Shown here piece by piece: positions 6,220-46,845 of a stretch of 64,000 nucleotides of DNA. The stretch lies in assembly GCF_058153355.1 (NCBI RefSeq), contig NZ_CM177019.1, one strand, 5' to 3'. Position 1 is the stretch's first letter; the number at the start of each line of letters is the position of its first letter. Below the pieces are notes generated by a model, which saw only the letters and a list, made by a program, of their open reading frames with translations, was not told the DNA's origin and searched no databases. Both the position numbers and the translations under genes were made by a program.

Positions 6220-9200
6220 TGTCGCCGAGACACTAGATCCTTTGCGCTTGCCCTTACAGGGCGAGCGCCTGATTGAAGCCTCTGCCGGCACAGGCAAAAC
6301 CTTTACGATTGCGGCGCTCTATTTGCGCCTGTTACTTGGACTAGGCGGTTCTGCCGCCTTTCCCCGCCCGCTGACCGTTGAAGAACTGCTGGTGGTGACC
6401 TTTACCGAGGCTGCCACGGCAGAATTGCGCGGTCGTATCCGTAGCAATATCCACGAGTTGCGCATCGCCTGTCTGCGTGAAACCACCGACAATCCACTGT
6501 ACGAACGCCTGCTGGAAGAGATCGACGATAAAGCGCAAGCCGCGCAGTGGTTGTTGTTAGCCGAACGGCAGATGGATGAAGCGGCAGTCTTTACTATTCA
6601 CGGTTTTTGCCAGCGCATGCTCAACTTGAATGCCTTTGAATCCGGCATGCTGTTTGAGCAGCAGCTGATTGAAGATGAGTCTCTGCTACGCTACCAGGCC
6701 TGCGCCGATTTCTGGCGTCGCCACTGCTACCCGCTGCCGCGTGAAATTGCCCAGGTGGTCTTTGAAACCTGGAAAGGGCCGCAGGCGTTGCTGCGCGATA
6801 TTAATCGTTATCTGCAAGGCGAAGCACCGGTTATCAAAGCACCGCCGCCCGATGATGAAACGCTGGCTTCCCGCCACGCGCAAATTGTGGCGCGTATTGA
6901 TACGGTAAAACAGCAGTGGCGCGACGCAGTGGGTGAACTGGATGCGCTGATCGAATCTTCTGGTATTGATCGACGCAAGTTTAACCGTAGCAATCAGGCT
7001 AAATGGATCGAGAAGATCAGTGCCTGGGCAGAAGAAGAGACCAACAGTTATCAGTTACCGGAGTCGCTGGAAAAATTCTCTCAGCGTTTCTTAGAAGATC
7101 GCACGAAAGCCGGGGGGGAAACCCCGCGACATCCACTGTTTGAGGCGATCGATCAACTGCTTGCAGAACCATTGTCGATCCGTGATCTGGTGATCACCCG
7201 CGCATTGGCTGAGATCCGCGAAACAGTAGCGCGTGAAAAACGCCGCCGTGGCGAATTGGGTTTTGATGACATGTTAAGTCGGCTCGATTCCGCGCTGCGT
7301 AGCGAAAGCGGCGAGGTGTTGGCAGCGGCGATCCGTACGCGATTCCCGGTGGCAATGATTGATGAATTTCAGGATACCGACCCCCAGCAGTACCGAATAT
7401 TTCGCCGTATCTGGCACCATCAACCGGAAACTGCATTGTTGCTGATTGGCGACCCGAAACAGGCTATATATGCATTCCGTGGAGCGGATATCTTCACTTA
7501 TATGAAGGCGCGTAATGAAGTTCACGCGCACTACACCTTAGACACCAACTGGCGCTCAGCACCTGGAATGGTGAACAGCGTGAATAAGCTTTTCAGCCAG
7601 ACTGATGACGCGTTCATGTTTCGCGAAATACCATTTATTCCAGTGAAATCAGCCGGCAAAAATCAGGCGTTACGTTTTGTATTTAAAGGTGAAACGCAGC
7701 CTGCGATGAAAATGTGGCTGATGGAAGGCGAAAGCTGCGGCGTTGGCGATTATCAAAGTACCATGGCGCAGGTATGTGCTGCGCAAATCCGCGACTGGCT
7801 ACAAGCCGGACAGCGGGGCGAAGCGTTGCTGATGAACGGCGACGACGCGCGTCCGGTGCGTGCTTCGGACATCAGTGTGCTGGTGCGCAGCCGCCAGGAG
7901 GCCGCTCAGGTGCGCGATGCCTTAACGCTGCTGGAAATCCCTTCCGTTTACCTTTCGAACCGCGACAGTGTTTTTGAAACTCTGGAAGCGCAGGAGATGC
8001 TTTGGCTGTTGCAGGCGGTGATGACACCAGAACGTGAGAACACCCTGCGCAGTGCGCTGGCAACGTCAATGATGGGGCTGAATGCGCTGGATATTGAAAC
8101 GCTGAATAATGACGAACATGCGTGGGATGCGGTAGTCGAAGAGTTCGATGGTTATCGGCAAATCTGGCGCAAACGTGGCGTTATGCCGATGCTGCGGGCG
8201 CTGATGTCGGCGCGTAACATTGCAGAAAACTTGCTGGCAACAGCAGGCGGTGAGCGGCGTCTTACCGATATCTTGCATATCAGCGAATTGCTACAAGAAG
8301 CCGGAACGCAGCTGGAAAGTGAACATGCGCTGGTACGCTGGTTATCGCAACATATCCTCGAGCCAGACAGTAATGCCTCCAGCCAACAAATGCGTCTCGA
8401 AAGTGATAAACATCTGGTGCAGATTGTCACGATCCACAAATCGAAAGGGCTGGAATATCCATTGGTCTGGCTGCCGTTTATCACCAATTTCCGCGTCCAG
8501 GATCAGGCGTTTTATCACGATCGCCACTCGTTTGAGGCTGTTCTGGATCTTAATGCTGCGCCAGAAAGCGTCGACCTCGCGGAGGCCGAACGTCTGGCGG
8601 AAGATCTGCGTTTGCTTTACGTGGCGCTGACGCGTTCGGTTTGGCATTGCAGTCTCGGCGTTGCACCGCTGGTGCGCCGTCGTGGCGATAAAAAAGGTGA
8701 CACCGACGTCCACCAAAGTGCGCTCGGGCGTTTGCTGCAAAAAGGGGAACCGCAAGATGCGGCAGGGCTTCGCACCTGTATTGAAGCGTTATGCGATGAT
8801 GATATTGCCTGGCAAACGGCACAAACTGGTGATAACCAGCCCTGGCAGGTTAATGATGCTTTAACTGCAGAACTGAATGCGAGGACGCTACAACGATTGC
8901 CCGGCGATAACTGGCGTGTCACCAGCTACTCCGGTTTGCAGCAGCGTGGTCACGGTATCGCTCAGGATCTGATGCCACGGCTGGATGTTGATGCCGCAGG
9001 CGTGGTCAGCGTCGTTGAAGAACCGACGTTAACACCGCATCAGTTCCCGCGTGGTGCGTCACCAGGGACGTTTTTGCACAGTTTGTTTGAAGACCTCGAT
9101 TTTACCCAGCCGGTTGACCCGAACTGGGTACAGGAAAAACTGGAACTCGGCGGCTTTGAATCGCAGTGGGAACCAGTGTTGACCGAGTGGATCACGGCTG

Positions 9201-9754
9201 TCCTCCAGGCACCTCTCAATGAAACGGGTGTTAGCCTGAATCAGCTTTCCGACCGCGATAAACAGGTGGAGATGGAGTTTTACCTGCCGATTAGTGAACC
9301 GCTCATCGCCAGCCAGCTTGATGCACTAATTCGCCAGTTTGATCCGCTATCCGCTGGCTGCCCGCCGCTGGAGTTCATGCAGGTACGCGGCATGTTAAAA
9401 GGCTTTATCGACCTGGTATTCCGCCACGAAGGGCGTTATTACCTGCTCGACTATAAATCCAACTGGCTGGGTGAAGACAGTTCGGCTTATACCCAACAGG
9501 CTATGGCAGCGGCGATGCAGGCACACCGCTATGATCTGCAATATCAGCTTTATACCCTGGCGCTGCATCGTTATCTGCGCCATCGCATTGCTGATTACGA
9601 CTATGATCGTCACTTTGGCGGCGTTATCTATCTGTTCCTGCGTGGCGTTGATAAAGAACATCCGCAACAAGGGATTTACACAACCCGACCCAACGCCGGG
9701 TTGATTGACCTGATGGATGAGATGTTTGCCGGTATGACCCTGGAGGAGGCGTAA
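6212..9754 (+). CDS. recB: RecBCD helicase/nuclease beta subunit RecB
   Basis: 1180 aa from [10 protein letters not shown]; Walker A motif GTGKTF; start overlaps the ptrA stop; UvrD-like helicase plus C-terminal nuclease region. Confidence 0.95.
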
Positions 9755-13378: not shown

Positions 13379-14632
13379 ATGTCGGGATCCAACACAGCAA
13401 TCAGCCGTCGTCGTTTACTGCAAGGCGCGGGTGCCATGTGGCTATTGAGCGTAAGTCAGGTCAGTCTGGCTGCGGTCAGCCAGGTCGTGGCGGTGCGCGT
13501 CTGGCCTGCGTCCAGCTACACCCGTGTGACGGTAGAATCTAATCGTCAGCTGAAATATAAGCAGTTCGCGTTGAGTAACCCTGAACGCGTGGTGGTGGAT
13601 ATCGAAGATGTAAACCTGAACTCAGTGCTCAAGGGGATGGCGGCACAAATTCGTGCTGATGACCCGTTCATCAAGTCGGCGCGCGTCGGGCAGTTTGACC
13701 CGCAAACCGTGCGGATGGTTTTTGAGTTAAAGCAAAACGTAAAACCGCAGCTGTTTGCCCTTGCTCCGGTCGCCGGGTTTAAAGAGCGTCTGGTGATGGA
13801 TCTCTATCCTGCCAATGCTCAGGACATGCAGGACCCGCTGCTGGCGCTGCTGGAGGATTACAATAAAGGCGATCTCGAAAAGCAGGTGCCGCCTGCGCAG
13901 AGTGGCCCGCAGCCAGGCAAAGCAGGGCGCGATCGTCCGATTGTCATTATGCTTGACCCTGGCCATGGCGGCGAAGACTCCGGTGCGGTGGGGAAATACA
14001 AAACGCGTGAAAAAGACGTGGTATTGCAAATTGCCCGCCGTTTGCGCTCTCTGATTGAGAAAGAGGGCAATATGAAAGTTTACATGACCCGTAATGAAGA
14101 CATCTTCATTCCGTTGCAAGTGCGCGTAGCAAAAGCACAGAAACAGCGTGCTGACTTGTTTGTCTCTATTCATGCCGATGCCTTTACCAGTCGCCAGCCG
14201 AGCGGTTCCTCTGTGTTTGCGCTCTCTACCAAAGGTGCAACCAGTACCGCGGCAAAATATCTGGCGCAAACTCAGAACGCCTCGGACTTGATTGGTGGCG
14301 TGAGTAAGAGCGGCGACCGTTATGTCGACCATACTATGTTCGATATGGTGCAGTCGCTGACCATTGCCGACAGTCTGAAGTTTGGTAAAGCTGTGTTGAA
14401 TAAGCTCGGTAAAATCAACAAGCTGCATAAAAATCAGGTTGAACAAGCCGGGTTTGCCGTGCTGAAAGCGCCTGATATACCCTCCATTTTGGTCGAAACG
14501 GCGTTTATCAGTAACGTTGAGGAAGAACGTAAACTGAAAACGGCAACCTTCCAGCAGGAAGTTGCGGAATCAATCCTCGCAGGGATAAAAGCGTATTTTG
14601 CCGATGGGGCGACGCTGGCGAGAAGGGGATAA
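13379..14632 (+). CDS. amiC: N-acetylmuramoyl-L-alanine amidase AmiC (Tat-exported)
   Basis: 417 aa from [20 protein letters not shown] (twin-arginine signal); AMIN domain and amidase_3 domain; divergent from argA. Confidence 0.93.
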
Positions 14633-14805
14633 TGTTTTTATTTATTCAATGAATTTATATTTCGTTGAATAGATAATATTTACCTGAATATTAGACGTTG
14701 GTTTTGTGACTGATGTCGAATATTTGAATGTCGGCTTGAAAAATAAGCCGACCATCTCTTTAATTAAGCACAATTCCGTGTAATGTATATGCATTAGTTA
14801 ATCAT

Positions 14806-14878
14806 CTTGTAACTGTTAAATCAGGCAAGGCAATGTTTGAAGTAATTATTACTTCTGACGTGCCTTGCCTTTTTTTTT
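14806..14878 (+). promoter_or_regulatory. RAT-like antiterminator target overlapping an intrinsic terminator, in the leader of the antiterminator gene
   Basis: cttGTAACTGttaaatCAGGCAAGGCA resembles the RAT consensus GGATTGTTACTG...GCAGGCAAAACC; stem caggcaaggca / tgccttgcc with nested palindrome gaagtaat-t-attacttc, followed by a run of 9 T. Confidence 0.6.
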
Positions 14879-14889
14879 GGAGCTATGGA

Positions 14890-15714
14890 ATGATCATCGA
14901 AAAAGTCATGAACAATAATTGTGTACAGGCATCGATGAATGGACAGGAGGTTATCATTTCTGGGCCTGGCGTCGGTTACAACAAAAAATATGGAATGTCG
15001 GTCCCTGAGCATCCGGCTAACCGGATTTTTTATGTCAGAAATGAACAAAAAAATAAACTCTACAAATTGATTGAACATGTGGATATTGAGTATGTTTTTG
15101 TTGCCGAAAAAATAGTGCAATATGCGGAGAACAATCTCGAAAAAAATCTCAATCCATCGCTACTATTGATTCTTGCTGATCATATTTCGAATGCAATATC
15201 CCGAGTCGCTTCAGGCATACAAATTAATAATGTTTTCCTTGATGAAATCAAAGCGTTGTACAAAGCAGAGTATGCGATAAGTCGCGATGCATTAACTATC
15301 ATTAATGAGCAATTCAGCGTTCAACTTCCTGATGATGAGATTGGTTTTATAGCATTGCATATTTTAAATAATTATGAAAATTCAGTTGATTATGAATCAG
15401 TACGGATTATTGAGTTGTCGCAAATAATCACGGGGCTTATTGAAGTTGTTTATAACAGAAAGGTGGACAGAAGTTCATTTAATTATTCCAGGTTCATGAT
15501 ACACCTTAAATATTTTTCAAGTCGCGTATTATGCAATGAAAAAATAAAACAGAAAGATATTGGTGATCTCTATGAACAGTTTCTTGAGAAAGACATTCTG
15601 TTACAGCGCGCAATTCATGAAATTGAAAGGTATTTGTACGCCACTTTTAAATATGAATTGATTTTGGAAGAAAAACTATATCTCTCTATTCGCACCAAAG
15701 TATTAATGGACTAA
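14890..15714 (+). CDS. BglG/LicT/SacY-family transcription antiterminator (CAT RNA-binding domain plus two PRD domains)
   Basis: 274 aa from MIIEKVMNNNCVQASMNGQEVIISGPGVGY (typical CAT N-terminus); RBS GGAG about 10 nt upstream; ORF track start at 14833 lies inside the leader hairpin. Confidence 0.85.
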   Translation: MIIEKVMNNNCVQASMNGQEVIISGPGVGYNKKYGMSVPEHPANRIFYVRNEQKNKLYKLIEHVDIEYVFVAEKIVQYAENNLEKNLNPSLLLILADHISNAISRVASGIQINNVFLDEIKALYKAEYAISRDALTIINEQFSVQLPDDEIGFIALHILNNYENSVDYESVRIIELSQIITGLIEVVYNRKVDRSSFNYSRFMIHLKYFSSRVLCNEKIKQKDIGDLYEQFLEKDILLQRAIHEIERYLYATFKYELILEEKLYLSIRTKVLMD

Positions 15715-15745
15715 TTATATATAACATTTATATGAGATAACCCGC

Positions 15746-17326
15746 ATGAAACAAAAGAAAGCCTGGAGTTTTTTTCAGAGCCTGGGAAAGGCATTTATGT
15801 ATCCCATCGCTCTGCTAAGTGTATGTGGCATGATGTTAGGGCTAGGAAGTGGTTTAGCCAGCGATGATATGGCAAAATTAATTCCACTACTGGCTATTCC
15901 CGTAATTAAAACCATTCTTGATTTTATTGTTAGCCTTGGTTTGTTTGCCTTTGTCAATTTACCTGTATTGTTTGCGATAGCTATACCTCTGGGGTTATTA
16001 AAAGAGAAAGAGGATAAAGCCTATGGCGCTTTTTCTGGCTTAATTGGTTTCATGGCGATGCATCTGGGAACGAACTTTTATCTTAAACAACATGACTTAT
16101 TGGTCGCTGCTGATCAAATGTCGACACATGGGCAAACCATTATTCTGGGAATCCAGTCCTACAATACCAGTGTGTTGGGTGGGATTATAGCAGGATTATT
16201 AGTCGCCAGTATGTATAAAAAGATCGTTAACTTACGTATTCCTGAATCATTAGGATTTTATAGTGGCCCACGCCTGGTGCCTATTATTACACTGATTGTG
16301 ATGAGCGGATTTGGTCTGATCATCCCTTTTATCTGGCCGCCATTTTTCAATCTTTTCATGCTCATTGGCCACTGGATTTCAACTTCCGGTCCTGTTGGCT
16401 ATTTTTTCTATGCAGTCGCCGAACGCGTGACGATACCTTTTGGTTTAAATCACCTGGTGACGTCAGTTTTCCGCTTTACCCCCATCGGCGGATCGGCAGT
16501 GATCGGCGGAGAAGAGTATTATGGCACCCTGAACATGTTTATGGCGTACGTCAAAGAGAATGCGGTCATTCCGCTGGATTTGGCGGGGAAAATGGAACAG
16601 GGCAAACTGATGATTCAGTATGGTCTGGCTGGTGCCGCGCTGGCGATGTATCGCACTGCTCATGCTCAAAACAGAAAAGCTATCAAAGCATTGCTTATTT
16701 CCGGGGTGCTTACAGTCATTATTGGCGGCGTCAGCGAACCGATTGAGTTTCTGTTCTTATTTGTCAGTCCACTGCTATTTGTCTTCCATGCTTTTATGAA
16801 TGGATTCGCCAACATGGTCTTGCCATATATGGGCGTGAAGATGGGATTTACTGGCGATCTGATTCAATTTATTAGCTTTGGCGTATTGCGTGGCACAAGA
16901 ACAGGTTGGCCAATAGCGGTGTGTGTCGAAGTGGCCTATTTCTTTATTTATTACTTTGTGTTCCGTTGGACTATTCTCAAATTTAACCTGATGACGGTAG
17001 GCCGTGAAGAGTCCAGTCCTGTCACGCTGAACGCTCATGAGGATACGGCTATAGCGGATATCCCAACGCTTGATAAATCAGAGCTGCAAGCAGCGGAGCA
17101 GATGGTTAAGGCACTTGGTGGTAAAGAGAATATTAAATCCCTGGATAATTGCGTAACTCGTTTACGTTTAACAATCGCAGATATGGGATTGATTGACGAG
17201 GCAGCAATAAAAAGAGCTGGCGGAATTGCGGTTGTTAAACTTGATCAAAATACCCTACAAGTCATTATCGGTACTAAAGTCATCGCCTTGCGTCGGGATA
17301 TGGATAACTACATGGGGATATGCTGA
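15746..17326 (+). CDS. PTS glucose-family EIICB component, MalX-like, no EIIA domain
   Basis: 526 aa; multi-pass EIIC; C-terminal EIIB with phosphorylatable Cys in LDNCVTRLRL; several blocks resemble E. coli MalX as recalled. Confidence 0.88.
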   Translation: MKQKKAWSFFQSLGKAFMYPIALLSVCGMMLGLGSGLASDDMAKLIPLLAIPVIKTILDFIVSLGLFAFVNLPVLFAIAIPLGLLKEKEDKAYGAFSGLIGFMAMHLGTNFYLKQHDLLVAADQMSTHGQTIILGIQSYNTSVLGGIIAGLLVASMYKKIVNLRIPESLGFYSGPRLVPIITLIVMSGFGLIIPFIWPPFFNLFMLIGHWISTSGPVGYFFYAVAERVTIPFGLNHLVTSVFRFTPIGGSAVIGGEEYYGTLNMFMAYVKENAVIPLDLAGKMEQGKLMIQYGLAGAALAMYRTAHAQNRKAIKALLISGVLTVIIGGVSEPIEFLFLFVSPLLFVFHAFMNGFANMVLPYMGVKMGFTGDLIQFISFGVLRGTRTGWPIAVCVEVAYFFIYYFVFRWTILKFNLMTVGREESSPVTLNAHEDTAIADIPTLDKSELQAAEQMVKALGGKENIKSLDNCVTRLRLTIADMGLIDEAAIKRAGGIAVVKLDQNTLQVIIGTKVIALRRDMDNYMGIC

Positions 17327-18501
17327 TGGATGTTTTTAATACTCCTATTTCCCGCAAAGGAACATATTGTACCCAATGGGACTTTTGCGAGGACAGATTT
17401 GGTGTAAAAGATGTATTACCATTCTCTATTTCAGATATGGATCTTCCGATACCGGAAGCTATCATCAGGGCATTAAGAAAACGTCTGGAACACCCGATTT
17501 TAGGGTACAGCCGTTGGCAGCATGATGACTATCTGAATGCGATAGTCAATTGGTATCATCAACAATATAAAACTGAAATCAAACCAGAATGGATCACCTA
17601 TAGCCCAAGCGTGATGTACTCCATTGCTAAAGCAATAGAGTTATTGACATCGCATGGTGATAATATTCTCGTTTTTACACCTGTCTATAATGCATTTTTT
17701 GATATAATTAAACATAGCGAGAGAAATATTCTGACAGCCTCTTTGATTATAAAAAATGAGGGGGGCTACGCTATCAATTGGCAAGATTTTGATCTTAAGA
17801 TTCAAAGCGCAAAGATGGTGTTATTATGTAATCCTCATAACCCGACAGGAACCGTCTGGTCGGAAGAAGAGCTGCATAAAATCGCTGCAAGCTGTGCAAG
17901 ACATAATGTCTGGTTATGTTCAGATGAAATTCACAGTGATTTTGTTTTTAATCGTAGCTTTACATCTGCGCTTAAAATAAAAAAAGAAAAAGTAGTGGTG
18001 TTTAATTCGATATCGAAGACATTTAATGTTCCTGCGCTAACAGGATCGTATATGATTTCAACTGACGATAATTTTAATCATAAGTTCAGAACGATATCAA
18101 GATATCGCGATTTTGTAAACTCCCCATCCGTACTGAATATAATTGCAACTATTATTGCCTATAACGAATGTGAGGGATGGTTAACGTCATTAAAGGCACA
18201 TATTGCCTCTAACATTCAATTCACCCAGCAGTATCTGAACGAAAATACTCCAGAATTGATCGTAAGGCCAGCTGATGGTTGCTATTTTTCGTGGATAGAT
18301 TGCTCTGCTATTGGTTATCCCTTTGATGAATTCTACAGTCGATTAATTCATGAAGGCAAAGTGGGCATTATGGCGGGGAATGTCTATGGAACGGAGGGGG
18401 AGGGCTACCTTCGTCTGAACCTGGCCTGCGGTCGAGAAAAATTATATATGGGGCTTACGCGTCTTGCGAGTGTAATTAAAAATATTAATCAAGGAAAATA
18501 A
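17326..18501 (+). CDS. PLP-dependent C-S lyase of the MalY/PatB family (class I/II aminotransferase fold); alternative start 17320
   Basis: GTYCTQWDF motif near the N-terminus and SISKTFNVPALTGSY with the PLP lysine, both parallel to MalY as recalled; ATG overlaps the PTS stop (TGATG), suggesting translational coupling. Confidence 0.85.
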   Translation: MDVFNTPISRKGTYCTQWDFCEDRFGVKDVLPFSISDMDLPIPEAIIRALRKRLEHPILGYSRWQHDDYLNAIVNWYHQQYKTEIKPEWITYSPSVMYSIAKAIELLTSHGDNILVFTPVYNAFFDIIKHSERNILTASLIIKNEGGYAINWQDFDLKIQSAKMVLLCNPHNPTGTVWSEEELHKIAASCARHNVWLCSDEIHSDFVFNRSFTSALKIKKEKVVVFNSISKTFNVPALTGSYMISTDDNFNHKFRTISRYRDFVNSPSVLNIIATIIAYNECEGWLTSLKAHIASNIQFTQQYLNENTPELIVRPADGCYFSWIDCSAIGYPFDEFYSRLIHEGKVGIMAGNVYGTEGEGYLRLNLACGREKLYMGLTRLASVIKNINQGK

Positions 18502-18503
18502 AA

Positions 18504-19100
18504 ATGAACAGCACGGATCTTATCCATCTCATTAAACATTTTATGCGTAACGAACATAAAGCAGTTGAAGAAGTTATTGATTCTCCCCTTTCGGAGGTCG
18601 CAAATTTAATTAAAGTATTACAGTCTTGTCAGGGGAAAGTTGTTTTTATTGGTGTCGGTAAGTCCGGTATTATTGCCCGAAAACTCGCCGCAACATTTGC
18701 CAGCACTGGAACTCCCTCGTTTTTTGTTCACGGTACTGAAGCCGTACACGGCGATCTTGGGATGGTGGCGAAAGATGATGTTGTTATTCTTATTTCAAAC
18801 AGTGGTGAGACGACAGAAATCCTGGCAACACTACCTAGTCTGAAAAAAATGGGTAATTATTTGATCTCCTTTACCCGCAGTCATCGCTCATCGCTTGCGA
18901 TAAGTTGTGATTTATCCGTTGAAATTCCCGTAAAAAGTGAGGCGGATAATTTAGGTTTAGCGCCGTCATGCTCATCAACAGTCGTTCTGGTTGTTGGTGA
19001 TGCGGTGGCGCTTGCGCTCTCCGAATTGAAAAAGTTTACTCGTGCTGATTTCGGCTTATATCATCCAGGAGGTGCGCTCGGTATTAAAGCAAACTCATAA
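18504..19100 (+). CDS. Stand-alone SIS-domain sugar-phosphate isomerase, similar to the KpsF/GutQ catalytic domain, without CBS domains
   Basis: 198 aa; motifs VVFIGVGKSGIIARKLAATFASTGTPSFFVH and ILISNSGET resemble the SIS domain of arabinose-5-phosphate isomerases; starts 2 bp after the lyase stop with RBS AAGGAAAA. Confidence 0.8.
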   Translation: MNSTDLIHLIKHFMRNEHKAVEEVIDSPLSEVANLIKVLQSCQGKVVFIGVGKSGIIARKLAATFASTGTPSFFVHGTEAVHGDLGMVAKDDVVILISNSGETTEILATLPSLKKMGNYLISFTRSHRSSLAISCDLSVEIPVKSEADNLGLAPSCSSTVVLVVGDAVALALSELKKFTRADFGLYHPGGALGIKANS

Positions 19101-19170
19101 TTTTAGAATATAAAACAGTAACCGGTCACGCCATCTTTTGGGGTGGCGTTCATTGATGTGAGTGTCAGCT

Positions 19171-20118
19171 ATGAAAAACGTTCTGGTCACCGTTCCCAGC
19201 TTTTCAGCGCGTTGTGTTTCTGCCAGCAAGCTGCTAAGAGAAAATCATTTTAACCTTATTATCAAGAATAATGTGGAGCATCTGGTTAAATCAGAATCCA
19301 CAGTATTACGAGAATCTATTTGCGCAGTCATTGCCGGAAAAGATTGTTATCAAGCGGATACGTTATCGCGACTACCAGGAGTGAAAATAATATCGAGATT
19401 CGGGACAGGGATTGATAATATTGATCTTCATACGGCTCGACAATCAGGTATTGTGGTCAATAATGCTGTTGGGATTAATTCAAATGCAGTCGCGGAATTT
19501 ATCATTGGTCTTATTTTTGCGAGCATGAGAAATATCCCCGGTAGCTATCATGCAATGCAAAATGGTTATTGGGGCGAGTCGCATGGCTGCGAGTTACAAG
19601 GTAAACGTATTGGCCTGCTTGGCTATGGCAATATTGGCAAAACACTGGCGAAAAGGTTATCTGGTTTTGATGTTGAGCTTTTAGCTTTTGACAAACAACC
19701 CGATTTCCAGGCCGCAGGCAAAGATGGAGTTCAGTTCGTATCAATTGAAGATATCTTTATGCAGTCTCATGTCATCATCGTTCTTTTGCCATTTTCTCCG
19801 GAGCTGGAGAACTTCATTAGTCATAAATATTTGTCGATGATGCGCAATGGTGCTCTTATCATCAACGCCGCAAGGGGAAAGTTGCTGGATGAGGGTGCTT
19901 TACTTCAGGTAATTGAAGAACGAAATGTTTTTGCAGCACTGGATGTGTTTAGCTCTGAACCGCTAGCGCAATTTAGCCCATTGCTACATGCCAGGAATAT
20001 CATTACAACGCCGCATATTGCGGCCGCCACCGTTGAGTCATACCAGCAAACCGGGATATACGTTGCCAGGTCGATAATAGATTTCTTTGCAGGAAGGGAG
20101 ATAAAAAACGTGCTGTGA
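19171..20118 (+). CDS. D-isomer-specific 2-hydroxyacid dehydrogenase family protein (NAD-binding)
   Basis: Rossmann motif GLLGYGNIGKTLAKRL; family hallmarks of catalytic Arg, Glu and His appear present; ORF track offers a GTG start at 19162. Confidence 0.8.
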   Translation: MKNVLVTVPSFSARCVSASKLLRENHFNLIIKNNVEHLVKSESTVLRESICAVIAGKDCYQADTLSRLPGVKIISRFGTGIDNIDLHTARQSGIVVNNAVGINSNAVAEFIIGLIFASMRNIPGSYHAMQNGYWGESHGCELQGKRIGLLGYGNIGKTLAKRLSGFDVELLAFDKQPDFQAAGKDGVQFVSIEDIFMQSHVIIVLLPFSPELENFISHKYLSMMRNGALIINAARGKLLDEGALLQVIEERNVFAALDVFSSEPLAQFSPLLHARNIITTPHIAAATVESYQQTGIYVARSIIDFFAGREIKNVL

Positions 20119-20143
20119 GGTCAGCTAAGGAAGATTTCAGGTA

Positions 20144-20177
20144 CAAAAAAACCGCAATCTGTGAAACACATTGCGGT
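20144..20177 (-). terminator. Intrinsic terminator of the tRNA-fMet operon; also the right boundary of the accessory cassette
   Basis: Hairpin accgcaat...attgcggt with a run of 7 T on the minus strand. Confidence 0.7.
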
Positions 20178-20196
20178 TTATCAGCATCATAAGTGT

Positions 20197-20273
<77 letters not shown>

Positions 20274-20316
20274 TCACCGTACTGCTTTACTTCATCAAAT
20301 TTTGATTGGTTGCGGG

Positions 20317-20393
<77 letters not shown>

Positions 20394-20591
20394 CGCACTA
20401 TACTCCGCTCGCGTTTTCATGCAACCTTTTTTTTACCCGGATCACGGATTTGGCATGATTTTGAGCAAAAACAAATCACTAAAGCCTGTTTTTTGTGCAA
20501 AATTTGCGTCAGGGAGAGGCTGCTCATTTCATTAAACGCGGCGGTTTGTTATCTTCATTGCGCCTTATTTTTTAAACTGAAGAAGAGAACA

Positions 20592-21689
20592 ATGAAAGGA
20601 CGTTGGGTAAAGTACCTTCTTATGGGCACGGTTGTGGCAATGCTTGCCGCCTGCTCTTCCAAACCAACCGATCGCGGACAGCAATATAAAGACGGGAAAT
20701 TTACCCAGCCTTTCTCTCTGGTAAACCAGCCAGATGCCGTTGGCGCGCCAATTAACGCCGGTGATTTTGCCGAGCAAATTAACCATATCCGTACTTCGTC
20801 ACCGCGTCTGTATGGCAACCAGAGTAATGTTTATAATGCGGTGCAGGAGTGGCTACGCGCAGGCGGTGATACCCGCAATATGCGTCAGTTCGGCATTGAC
20901 GCCTGGCAGATGGAAGGTGCCGACAACTATGGCAACGTGCAGTTTACGGGCTATTACACGCCTGTCATTCAGGCGCGCCATACCCGTCAGGGCGAGTTCC
21001 AGTATCCTATTTACCGTATGCCGCCAAAACGTGGTCGTCTGCCGTCTCGTGCGGAGATCTACGCGGGAGCATTGAGCGATAAATACATCCTCGCTTACAG
21101 CAACTCTCTGATGGATAACTTCATTATGGATGTGCAGGGTAGCGGGTATATCGATTTTGGTGATGGCAGTCCGCTTAACTTCTTCAGCTATGCCGGAAAG
21201 AATGGTCATGCCTATCGCAGTATTGGTAAGGTGCTGATTGACCGTGGCGAAGTGAAAAAAGAAGATATGTCGATGCAGGCGATTCGTCACTGGGGTGAAA
21301 CACACAGTGAAGCCGAGGTTCGCGAGCTGCTGGAACAGAACCCGTCTTTCGTCTTCTTTAAACCGCAATCTTTTGCTCCGGTGAAAGGGGCAAGTGCGGT
21401 GCCGCTGGTTGGTCGCGCTTCAGTTGCGTCCGATCGTTCCATTATCCCGCCTGGTACAACCTTACTGGCAGAAGTGCCGCTGCTGGATAATAACGGCAAA
21501 TTTAACGGTCAGTACGAACTGCGGCTGATGGTGGCGCTGGATGTCGGTGGTGCAATCAAAGGCCAACACTTCGATATTTATCAAGGTATCGGGCCGGAAG
21601 CCGGACACCGCGCAGGTTGGTACAACCACTATGGACGTGTTTGGGTGCTGAAAACCGCCCCGGGCGCAGGTAACGTCTTTAGCGGCTGA
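20592..21689 (+). CDS. mltA: Membrane-bound lytic murein transglycosylase A (lipoprotein)
   Basis: 365 aa from MKGRWVKYLLMGTVVAMLAACSS (lipobox); the longer ORF from 20310 runs through the tRNA genes and is spurious. Confidence 0.92.
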   Translation: MKGRWVKYLLMGTVVAMLAACSSKPTDRGQQYKDGKFTQPFSLVNQPDAVGAPINAGDFAEQINHIRTSSPRLYGNQSNVYNAVQEWLRAGGDTRNMRQFGIDAWQMEGADNYGNVQFTGYYTPVIQARHTRQGEFQYPIYRMPPKRGRLPSRAEIYAGALSDKYILAYSNSLMDNFIMDVQGSGYIDFGDGSPLNFFSYAGKNGHAYRSIGKVLIDRGEVKKEDMSMQAIRHWGETHSEAEVRELLEQNPSFVFFKPQSFAPVKGASAVPLVGRASVASDRSIIPPGTTLLAEVPLLDNNGKFNGQYELRLMVALDVGGAIKGQHFDIYQGIGPEAGHRAGWYNHYGRVWVLKTAPGAGNVFSG

Positions 21690-45492: not shown

Positions 45493-46845
45493 ATGAGTTC
45501 TTTAAGTCAGGCTGCGAGCAGTGTGGAAAAACGCACGAATGCTCGTTACTGGATAGTGGTGATGTTGTTTATCGTCACATCCTTCAACTACGGCGACCGC
45601 GCTACGCTCTCTATCGCCGGTTCGGAAATGGCCAAAGATATCGGCCTTGATCCTGTGGGAATGGGCTATGTGTTCTCTGCTTTCTCATGGGCTTATGTTA
45701 TCGGGCAGATCCCTGGTGGCTGGTTGCTGGACCGTTTTGGTTCAAAACGCGTCTACTTCTGGTCGATCTTTATCTGGTCGATGTTTACCTTGCTGCAAGG
45801 CTTCGTCGATATCTTTAGTGGATTCGGCATTATCGTTGCCCTGTTTACGCTGCGCTTCCTGGTCGGGCTTGCTGAAGCGCCATCTTTCCCCGGTAACAGT
45901 CGCATTGTAGCGGCCTGGTTTCCGGCGCAGGAAAGGGGAACTGCAGTGTCTATTTTTAACTCCGCCCAATACTTCGCAACAGTGATCTTCGCGCCGATTA
46001 TGGGCTGGCTGACTCATGAAGTGGGTTGGTCACATGTCTTCTTCTTCATGGGCGGTCTGGGCATTGTCATCAGCTTTATCTGGTTGAAAGTCATCCATGA
46101 GCCAAATCAACATCCGGGCGTAAATCAGAAAGAGCTGGAGTACATCGCCGCGGGTGGTGCGCTGATCAATATGGATCAGCAAAACACCAAAGTTAAAGTA
46201 CCGTTCAGCGTGAAGTGGGGGCAGATCAAACAGCTGCTCGGGTCACGGATGATGATCGGCGTTTATATCGGTCAGTACTGTATCAACGCCCTGACTTACT
46301 TCTTTATTACCTGGTTCCCGGTTTATCTGGTGCAGGCACGCGGGATGTCGATTCTGAAAGCGGGCTTTGTGGCTTCCGTTCCGGCGGTTTGCGGTTTTAT
46401 CGGCGGTGTGCTGGGTGGGATTATTTCCGACTGGCTGATGCGCCGCACGGGATCGCTGAACATTGCGCGTAAAACACCGATCGTAATGGGCATGTTGCTG
46501 TCGATGGTGATGGTGTTCTGCAACTACGTCAACGTTGAGTGGATGATCATCGGCTTTATGGCGCTGGCCTTCTTCGGTAAGGGCATCGGGGCGCTGGGTT
46601 GGGCAGTAATGGCAGATACCGCGCCAAAAGAGATCAGCGGTCTTTCCGGTGGCCTGTTCAATATGTTTGGTAACATTTCCGGTATCGTCACGCCAATCGC
46701 AATTGGTTATATCGTTGGCACGACTGGCTCCTTTAATGGGGCGCTGATTTATGTTGGTGTTCATGCCCTAATCGCGGTACTGAGCTACCTGGTGCTGGTG
46801 GGCGATATCAAGCGTATCGAGCTGAAACCTGTTGCGGGGCAATAA
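45493..46845 (+). CDS. gudP: Glucarate/galactarate MFS transporter GudP
   Basis: 450 aa, 12-TM MFS. Confidence 0.9.

Follow-up and report, generated by a model that had tools for sequence, protein, structure and literature searches.

The 198-amino acid (aa) protein encoded at positions 18504–19100 on the plus strand of the window—the whole 64,000-nucleotide (nt) stretch of DNA analysed—is very probably, judged by orthology and domain content, a complete and functional single-domain arabinose-5-phosphate isomerase (API) that interconverts ribulose 5-phosphate (Ru5P) and arabinose 5-phosphate (A5P), its gene being fourth in a PTS operon of five genes that was acquired horizontally and lies between amiC and the tRNA-fMet genes. 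This SIS-only, KpsF/GutQ-type sugar-phosphate isomerase is the product of the same gene as its ortholog in E. coli CFT073, present here in another E. coli lineage. The two proteins are identical at 192 of 198 residues (97%; CFT073 C_RS16165) and differ by six substitutions (S3N, R15H, H18L, V32F, T104A, and R128H), all of which spare the proposed catalytic residues. C_RS16165 is 100% identical to the chain crystallised in PDB entries 5UQI and 5VHU, and the window isomerase shares the length and the ends of 5UQI. The amiC-adjacent locus, the five-gene operon, and the 198-aa SIS-only architecture are the same in CFT073; however, a type VI secretion cluster separates the dehydrogenase gene from the tRNAs in that strain, whereas only 78 nt do so in the window. 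We take c3406 to be the locus tag of the CFT073 isomerase on PAI-metV. On PAI-CFT073-metV, the locus forms part of the genes c3405–c3410, which carry the label ‘PTS system, maltose/glucose specific’ (PMC2831201); Mosberg et al. (2011, J Bacteriol 193:2981) reported an arabinose-5-phosphate isomerase from this same island. A literature search on c3406, c3405, PAI-metV, and the enzyme returned no later functional work. To our knowledge, no substrate of the operon has been reported since 2009–2011. The exact isomerase sequence is already named arabinose-5-phosphate isomerase in public sources and RefSeq routinely annotates all five operon genes. The gene, its missing CBS domains, the in vitro activity of the CFT073 ortholog, and the structure are already on record. 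The sequence-only reading had left the pair without a known substrate; the isomerase, however, has a characterised counterpart, since crystal structures exist for its CFT073 ortholog and an arabinose-5-phosphate isomerase from that island was published in 2011.

Pfam assigns the 198-aa protein a single domain, SIS (PF01380, 90 bits, residues 41–170), and detects no CBS domain (PF00571) in it. The best NCBIfam models are those of KdsD, KpsF/GutQ, and GutQ (197, 192, and 163 bits); MurQ etherase and HxlB models match weakly. Of each of the three best models only the SIS half is covered—positions 36–201 of 328 in the case of KdsD—and since the CBS half is missing, the scores fall below the full-length family cut-offs (191.8 versus 203.7 for TIGR00393, 197 versus 505 for KdsD NF008141, and 163 versus 481 for GutQ NF008581). 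A tblastn search with K-12 KdsD aligned its residues 48–201 to window positions 18627–19088 at 59% identity, while the CBS half (residues 200–328) had no match within the 5.56-kb block that carries the operon. Translation of 19000–20200 revealed stops in all three forward frames between 19098 and 19161. With the CBS half unmatched and every frame closed, a frameshift or sequencing error, for which the stretch 19100–19170 had been singled out, cannot restore a CBS-containing protein, and the original description of a SIS domain without CBS domains, with no remnant of the latter downstream, is borne out. A CBS-like tblastn match elsewhere in the window (46371–46586, minus strand, E = 5e-4) lies antisense within an MFS transporter open reading frame and was discarded as noise. 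Apart from fragments, all of the best 120 database homologues share its length, about 200 aa, and over 1,800 sequences in the database conserve the protein at 97–99%. K53, E105, E146, and H187 form invariant alignment columns opposite K59, E111, E152, and H193 of KdsD. The latter four are presumably the catalytic residues proposed for KdsD from its structure (PDB 2XHZ).

The isomerase and dehydrogenase genes are the last two of five genes that run in one direction with intergenic gaps of −1 to 70 nt. The first (14890–15714, plus strand) encodes a 274-aa BglG/LicT-family transcription antiterminator with Pfam CAT_RBD (54 bits) and PRD (92 bits) domains in succession. Its match to the NCBIfam LicT model spans positions 1–269 of 273 but, at 227 bits, does not reach the equivalog cut-off of 300, and the BglG equivalog cut-off is missed as well; RefSeq lists it as a PRD domain-containing protein starting at 14890. 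The mechanically predicted start of this open reading frame, 14833, falls within the terminator described below. The second gene (15746–17326, plus strand) encodes a PTS EIICB permease of the glucose/maltose (MalX-like) family, with PTS_EIIC (250 bits) and PTS_EIIB (54 bits) domains and no EIIA domain according to Pfam. Its match to TIGR02004 (PTS-IIBC-malX) reaches 537 bits, short of the cut-off of 632. The third (17326–18501, plus strand) encodes a 391-aa PLP-dependent C-S lyase of the MalY/PatB family that exceeds the TIGR04350 PatB C-S lyase cut-off (368 versus 340 bits) and whose closest solved structure is E. coli MalY (1D2F, E = 1e-85).

The fifth gene (19171–20118, plus strand), whose start codon lies 70 nt past the end of the isomerase gene, encodes a 315-aa D-isomer-specific 2-hydroxyacid dehydrogenase of the short PGDH-like type (Pfam 2-Hacid_dh_C PF02826, 159 bits; 2-Hacid_dh PF00389, 72 bits). 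Profile searches thus place both neighbours in the families first proposed: the isomerase is a SIS protein of the KpsF/GutQ type and the downstream protein a member of the 2-Hacid_dh family. The GxGxxG motif had likewise been recognised correctly and corresponds to G151-Y-G153-N-I-G156 (window positions 19621–19638). The start codon needs a minor correction: in a 99.7%-identical strain, the gene as annotated by RefSeq begins, once mapped onto the window, at the ATG at 19171 rather than at the GTG at 19162. The closest solved structure is a short PGDH (1WWK, E = 2.5e-48); alignment with 1WWK and a second PGDH structure, 1YGY, matches GYGNIG, naaRG, sEP, and tpHiaa, the last three of which contain the catalytic Arg, Glu, and His. 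However, the ‘IVRS’/‘LVRS’ of PGDH is aligned opposite ‘VIAG’ in the dehydrogenase, so that the ‘VRS’ motif is replaced by ‘IAG’. The ‘RS’ motif of PGDH binds the substrate anion. Scores also remain under the PGDH equivalog cut-offs (TIGR01327, 210 versus 454; NF008759, 150 versus 404). Although RefSeq names the gene D-3-phosphoglycerate dehydrogenase, 2-hydroxyacid dehydrogenase with the substrate unassigned is therefore the more appropriate designation. Taken together, domain and operon data uphold the initial picture of a minimal KpsF/GutQ-type isomerase residing in a PTS operon beside a 2-hydroxyacid dehydrogenase.

A RAT-like antiterminator target, TTGTAACTGTTAAATCAGGCAA, is located at 14807–14828 (plus strand) and its 3′ end shares 6 nt with the 5′ arm of an intrinsic terminator (14823–14879, plus strand) directly 5′ of the antiterminator gene. 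The RAT core, TTGTWACYG-N4-8-CRGGCAA, is common to both K-12 bgl RATs and was located by pattern search, as MAFFT alignment with the K-12 bgl RATs set the short boxes out of register; it occurs once in the 64-kb window, against an expectation of 0 by chance. The terminator consists of a hairpin (14823–14870, AGGCAAGGCA...TGCCTTGCCT) followed by a run of nine T residues (14871–14879), and its RNA folds at −30.4 kcal/mol (z = −4.5), a value equalled by none of 200 shuffled sequences. The RAT core also appears in the CFT073 and Citrobacter leaders. In a leader alignment, the RAT is nearly invariant with respect to Atlantibacter and Enterobacter while its flanks diverge; compensatory changes (GGCAAGACA/TGTCTTGC) keep the terminator stem paired in Atlantibacter, and the stem is rebuilt in Enterobacter. 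No second RAT or terminator is present in the 31-nt gap ahead of the PTS gene. A generic promoter and terminator scan performed no better than on shuffled sequence and overlooked the leader terminator, whose stem is larger than the scan allows, and an Rfam scan of 14500–20600 (E ≤ 1) yielded two tRNAs and sub-threshold noise, the leader matching no family. This clearly defined RAT/terminator leader is one addition of the present analysis, and removal of the terminator could force expression of the operon.

The operon occupies a 5.56-kb block of about 40% G+C (0.39–0.42, versus about 0.52 in the flanks), with amiC on one side and the tRNA-fMet genes on the other. The right-hand bound is formed by two initiator tRNA-Met genes on the minus strand (20197–20273 and 20307–20383), identified by ARAGORN and by Rfam tRNA matches of 61 bits each. 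In K-12, where the layout is amiC-metV-metW-metZ-mltA, the block is absent and the amiC-metV spacer measures about 70 bp. Boundary alignment shows that the block swaps cleanly for this spacer, with no obvious direct repeats at its edges, and the open reading frame list contains no integrase within it. These exact insertion boundaries are another small addition. Of 5,426 complete E. coli genomes, 1,683 (31%) carry the block, and in a Citrobacter it occupies a different chromosomal site. Together with the low G+C content and the absence from K-12, this distribution supports horizontal acquisition.

Two Enterobacter loci keep the order antiterminator-PTS-MalY-SIS at 61–65% identity and do so without the dehydrogenase, which is evidence that the latter is optional and does not belong to the core of the operon—the third small addition made here. 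The PTS-lyase-SIS core recurs in a metagenomic contig, and its conservation points to a genuine pathway under selection. Firmicutes, which have no Kdo, hold many SIS-only homologues of about 200 aa in sugar-utilisation clusters of other kinds, for example LacI-SIS-PfkB kinase-MFS; this speaks for a catabolic role of the isomerase. The nearest homologues of the isomerase outside Enterobacteriaceae belong to Gram-positive bacteria that lack Kdo synthesis. Isomerase and dehydrogenase, first described as a pair, do not form a conserved unit in these comparisons: the operon has five genes, Enterobacter dispenses with the dehydrogenase, and the Firmicute partners are different ones.

The operon combines features of several known systems. 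As in K-12 malI-malXY, the gene for a MalY/PatB C-S lyase comes immediately after that for a MalX-type EIICB. In K-12, malXY is controlled by the MalI repressor. In contrast, the window operon is predicted to be under antiterminator and RAT control, has an isomerase and a dehydrogenase added, and its PTS remains below the MalX cut-off. With bgl and licT, it shares a CAT-PRD antiterminator and a leader in which a RAT of the same core overlaps an intrinsic terminator, but it has only one RAT/terminator, located upstream of the antiterminator gene, and unlike in bgl the regulated PTS belongs to the glucose/maltose rather than the beta-glucoside family. The isomerase is 59% identical to residues 48–201 of KdsD, in the SIS domain, and has the four proposed catalytic residues in common with it. 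KdsD, GutQ, and KpsF differ from it in carrying C-terminal tandem CBS domains of about 130 aa, and the isomerase gene is accessory and horizontally acquired rather than core.

The leader arrangement suggests how the operon might work. Transcription would begin in a 257-nt leader (14633–14889) and halt at the terminator unless the antiterminator binds the RAT; in such a scheme, relief of termination would rely on TTGTAACTG and CAGGCAA. If bgl and licT are a guide, the PRD may be phosphorylated by the cognate EIICB and HPr, and read-through would therefore be limited to conditions in which the sugar is present. Lacking an EIIA domain, the MalX-like EIICB probably relies on the general EIIA-Glc to import and phosphorylate some sugar or glycoside. 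The PTS product would then be processed by the MalY/PatB lyase, the SIS isomerase, and, in operons that have it, the dehydrogenase, with the isomerase contributing an aldose-ketose step that may join this product to the pentose-phosphate pool. As the sequence-only reading proposed, the isomerase and the dehydrogenase may both act on the PTS product. Several points count against the preferred reading: no glucose-family PTS is known to yield A5P or Ru5P, so that the connection between the PTS product and an A5P isomerase lacks an explanation; the role of a C-S lyase within a sugar pathway is left unexplained; and the dehydrogenase falls short of the PGDH equivalog threshold.

It is conceivable, if doubtful, that the physiological substrate of the isomerase is another PTS-derived sugar phosphate, such as a hexose phosphate or a substituted sugar phosphate, and that A5P turnover represents a side or in vitro activity. 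The position of the gene in a glucose/maltose-family PTS operon, the antiterminator-PTS-lyase-SIS core kept in Enterobacter, and the varied sugar-catabolic clusters around the Firmicute homologues all speak for such a substrate, as does the fact that MurQ etherase and HxlB, of other SIS families, catalyse different reactions through the same enolisation chemistry. The Bacteroides fragilis API (PDB 3ETN) and a Listeria monocytogenes SIS protein (PDB 3FXA) are KpsF/GutQ-like, SIS-only proteins of about 200–220 aa (E about 5e-30 each), although both are far more distant from the isomerase than the KdsD SIS domain is and their genomic contexts differ. The Listeria protein is reported to be a glucose-6-phosphate isomerase, which favours a different sugar phosphate here too and implies that neither SIS-only architecture nor API-like sequence fixes physiological specificity. 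The Bacteroides protein is cited as an arabinose-5-phosphate isomerase (PMC13326640). Against a different substrate stands the 59% identity to the catalytic domain of KdsD, with all proposed catalytic residues retained. API activity is published for the CFT073 ortholog. Other sugar phosphates that were tried reportedly did not serve as substrates.

Less likely still, the isomerase would serve as a back-up or regulatory supplier of A5P for Kdo, capsule, or a signal, in the manner of GutQ and outside the catabolism of an imported sugar. It would share its activity with KdsD, GutQ, and KpsF. The gut operon brings together a PTS, a dehydrogenase, and the arabinose-5-phosphate isomerase GutQ, and in this it parallels the window operon. 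A link between the CFT073 enzyme and LPS precursor supply is drawn in the secondary literature (PMC4470864). However, E. coli already possesses KdsD and GutQ, and many strains KpsF as well; the nearest homologues outside Enterobacteriaceae come from Gram-positives without Kdo; and expression would be gated by a sugar-specific antiterminator. Deletion of c3405–c3410 in CFT073 reportedly lowered urinary-tract colonisation, and deletion of c3406 by itself is said to have caused no colonisation defect, the latter again speaking against a supply role.

That the gene is a truncated KdsD/KpsF-type remnant, a pseudogene whose CBS domains were lost by frameshift, deletion, or sequencing error, draws on the sole fact that canonical E. 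coli APIs bear two CBS domains and is refuted to the point of negligible probability by the lack of CBS-like sequence in any frame and the stops in every frame after 19100, by the dehydrogenase gene beginning 70 nt downstream, by the crystallised and widely conserved 198-aa form, and by a standard length of about 200 aa in thousands of homologues across phyla.

A complete single-domain arabinose-5-phosphate isomerase remains the preferred assignment. There is nevertheless some, albeit lesser, chance that the operon constitutes a new pathway for some compound that may be a glycoside or a sugar conjugate and require a C-S lyase, and that the physiological substrate of the SIS enzyme is not A5P. 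If so, a MalX-like PTS, a PatB-type lyase, a KpsF-type SIS protein, and a non-PGDH 2-hydroxyacid dehydrogenase would be its unusual, defining enzyme set.

The 198-aa open reading frame at 18504–19100 lies exactly where the sequence-only reading had placed a KpsF/GutQ-like SIS isomerase, and its product (the SIS protein) consists of a single Pfam SIS domain. That CBS domains are missing is borne out as well: Pfam gives none, and the CBS half of KdsD finds no match by tblastn in the block, the low-G+C operon region that carries the gene. The NCBIfam KdsD, KpsF and GutQ models match the protein strongly, with the matches confined to the SIS halves of the models. Its alignment with K-12 KdsD reaches approximately residue 201 of 328, and tblastn of KdsD on the window places residues 48–201 at 18627–19088 with 59% identity. 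A frameshift that would restore a CBS-containing isomerase was checked by tblastn and inspection of the reading frames; this explanation fails because stop codons occur in all three frames within 19098–19161 and the CBS half is unmatched in the block. Elsewhere in the window, tblastn aligns the CBS region of KdsD weakly (E = 5e-4) with 46371–46586 on the minus strand; this stretch runs antisense within the open reading frame of an MFS transporter (45493–46845, 450 aa), and the match is taken to be due to chance.

A sequence search of the PDB retrieved 5UQI and 5VHU ("phosphosugar isomerase", 198 aa), which match the SIS protein end to end (E = 9e-121). The 5UQI chain is 100% identical to the SIS protein of CFT073, from which the protein of the window differs by six substitutions (192/198 identical, 97%). 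Mosberg et al. reportedly identified the product of c3406, the CFT073 gene, as homologous to the arabinose-5-phosphate isomerases (APIs) of E. coli but limited to the SIS domain, without the CBS pair; they are said to have found API activity in the recombinant protein and to have proposed that c3405–c3410 serve, as one operon, to take up and use an unknown carbohydrate. Mice were reportedly still colonised by a c3406 deletion strain, and Lloyd et al. in 2009 are said to have reported a defect for the c3405–c3410 deletion. The Mosberg et al. paper (2011, J Bacteriol 193:2981) is cited in two reference lists, and a review summarizes the enzyme as an API converting ribulose 5-phosphate to arabinose 5-phosphate (A5P). 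Bryant et al. (PMC2831201) place c3405–c3410 within PAI-CFT073-metV and label this set of genes "PTS system, maltose/glucose specific". The exact SIS protein sequence of the window occurs on at least 1,000 contigs of a public collection, and some public sources label it arabinose-5-phosphate isomerase. The proposed catalytic residues of KdsD (K59, E111, E152 and H193) align with the invariant K53, E105, E146 and H187 of the SIS protein, and the six substitutions all lie away from these positions. The protein is homologous to the catalytic domain of KdsD, GutQ and KpsF and works in the same way, but without the CBS pair it falls outside the definition of that two-module family. It belongs to the single-domain c3406 type, of which it is in fact the ortholog. 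The observation brings nothing new. The feature has already been annotated, biochemically characterized, and crystallized.

The block interrupts a chromosome of E. coli type, with ArgA and AmiC encoded on its left and two initiator tRNA-Met genes, MltA, TcdA, CsdE, and CsdA on its right. It spans 5.56 kb from the amiC stop (14632) to the first tRNA (20197) with a G+C content of 0.39–0.42, as opposed to ~0.52 in the flanks; the corresponding interval in K-12 measures only ~70 bp. Its five genes, all in the same direction, encode an antiterminator of the BglG/LicT family that combines a CAT and a PRD domain (14890–15714), a MalX-like PTS EIICB lacking an EIIA domain (15746–17326), a MalY/PatB C-S lyase scoring above the PatB family cut-off and with E. 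coli MalY as top structure match (17326–18501), the SIS protein, and a D-2-hydroxyacid dehydrogenase (19171–20118). Among complete E. coli genomes, 1,683 of 5,426 carry the block (≥80% of the query covered). Beyond its right end, a mechanically called TTG open reading frame of 459 aa (20310–21689, plus strand) starts inside an opposite-strand tRNA-Met gene and extends into mltA; its first ~90 codons are an extension artefact, the true MltA start being further downstream as in K-12.

In CFT073 the same five genes stand beside amiC, with a type VI secretion cluster after them. While this cluster places ~25 kb (L002, 1–24590) between dehydrogenase gene and tRNAs, the window has a spacer of 78 nt (20119–20383 compared), and the metabolic block and the secretion cluster are therefore separable parts of 'PAI-metV'. 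Two initiator tRNA-Met copies are present in the window, and three in K-12 (L014, 1888–2184) and in a 99.7%-identical strain (L001). The cassette's chromosomal site differs between genera: it adjoins the RNase T gene in Citrobacter sp. U14242 (L011, 3382–8621) and a fructose-PTS-like cluster in Enterobacter (L006 and L012, 3392–7591). With no integrase visible at these Citrobacter and Enterobacter loci, the cassette must travel as one unit by some other route.

The 257-nt leader of the block shows a classical RAT/terminator arrangement, RAT denoting the antiterminator target. A hairpin at 14823–14870 (−30.4 kcal/mol, z = −4.5) is followed by nine T, and TTGTAACTGTTAAATCAGGCAA lies directly 5′ of it with a six-base overlap. 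The two known BglG targets in K-12 are TTGTTACTG-N6-CAGGCAA and TTGTTACCG-N7-CGGGCAA; the core they share with the leader occurs once in the 64-kb window, where none is expected by chance, and is also present in the CFT073 and Citrobacter leaders. When aligned with the Atlantibacter and Enterobacter leaders, the RAT box is nearly invariant between diverging flanks, and the changes in the terminator stem are compensatory. Antitermination in the presence of the PTS substrate is therefore the most likely way in which the operon is turned on; by analogy with bgl and licT, this control would follow a phosphorylation logic. Since the maximal open reading frame of the antiterminator begins at 14833, within the terminator hairpin, 14890 is the credible start. 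The block resembles malXY in its PTS–lyase pair and bgl in its antitermination.

As the sequence-only reading had noted, the SIS gene is followed by a dehydrogenase with a GxGxxG motif: the protein has the two 2-Hacid_dh domains, and its dinucleotide-binding motif reads GYGNIG. As a small correction, RefSeq annotation of the 99.7%-identical strain places the start at an ATG mapping to 19171. The RefSeq name phosphoglycerate dehydrogenase (PGDH) should not be taken to fix its substrate. The PGDH equivalog score is 210 bits against a cut-off of 454, and the catalytic Arg, Glu, and His are kept, with "IAG" replacing the "VRS" of PGDH structures, a motif that forms part of the substrate anion site. 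The lineage is narrow (E. coli, Citrobacter at ~71%, the remainder at ≤48%). The nearest Firmicute relative (40% identity) belongs to a Cohnella faecalis cluster (L016, 2786–10626) of the order GntR, ABC transporter, dehydrogenase, DHDPS-like protein, NanE, and ROK kinase, an arrangement reminiscent of sialic-acid-type catabolism and a hint that sugar-acid intermediates are the substrates of the dehydrogenase clade. The spacer between the SIS and dehydrogenase genes contains an 8-bp hairpin (19128–19149; ACGCCATC / GGGTGGCGT, loop TTTTGG), no canonical terminator because a T-run is absent after it; it could be a processing or stabilizing element, or a weak attenuator parting the dehydrogenase from the core genes.

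The proposal that isomerase and dehydrogenase form a functional unit holds only in part. All five genes occur in one Citrobacter at a different site; in Atlantibacter the block occupies the site that it has in the window, with the dehydrogenase called in one of two assemblies, and a metagenomic contig encodes PTS, aminotransferase, SIS protein (64% identity), and dehydrogenase (48%). Against a fixed pair, two Enterobacter loci comprise antiterminator, PTS, lyase, and SIS protein (61–65% identical) without dehydrogenase, and the Firmicute partners differ. In Atlantibacter hermannii L004 no gene is called at the expected dehydrogenase place (7606–9383), although one is present in L005; this may reflect a pseudogene or local loss and agrees with the dehydrogenase being dispensable. 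A 3,437-bp Logan contig carries a predicted 398-aa protein (P0132) with SIS and 2-Hacid_dh Pfam domains and 80% identity to the dehydrogenase of the window, either a naturally fused SIS–dehydrogenase protein or an artefact of a frameshift or of assembly.

That the operon's pathway represents really new chemistry, with A5P not the physiological substrate, appears rather unlikely. SIS-only proteins of ~200 aa number in the thousands, and the best 120 matches are all SIS-only, many of them from Firmicutes. The SIS-only homologue of lactobacilli is accompanied by a DHDPS-like enzyme and a KDPG-type aldolase, with a divergent PTS of the galactitol family next to them, and in Mammaliicoccus the order is LacI, SIS, PfkB kinase, MFS. 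The Firmicutes carrying such homologues make no Kdo, which argues for a SIS-only subfamily that is catabolic rather than a supplier of LPS precursors.
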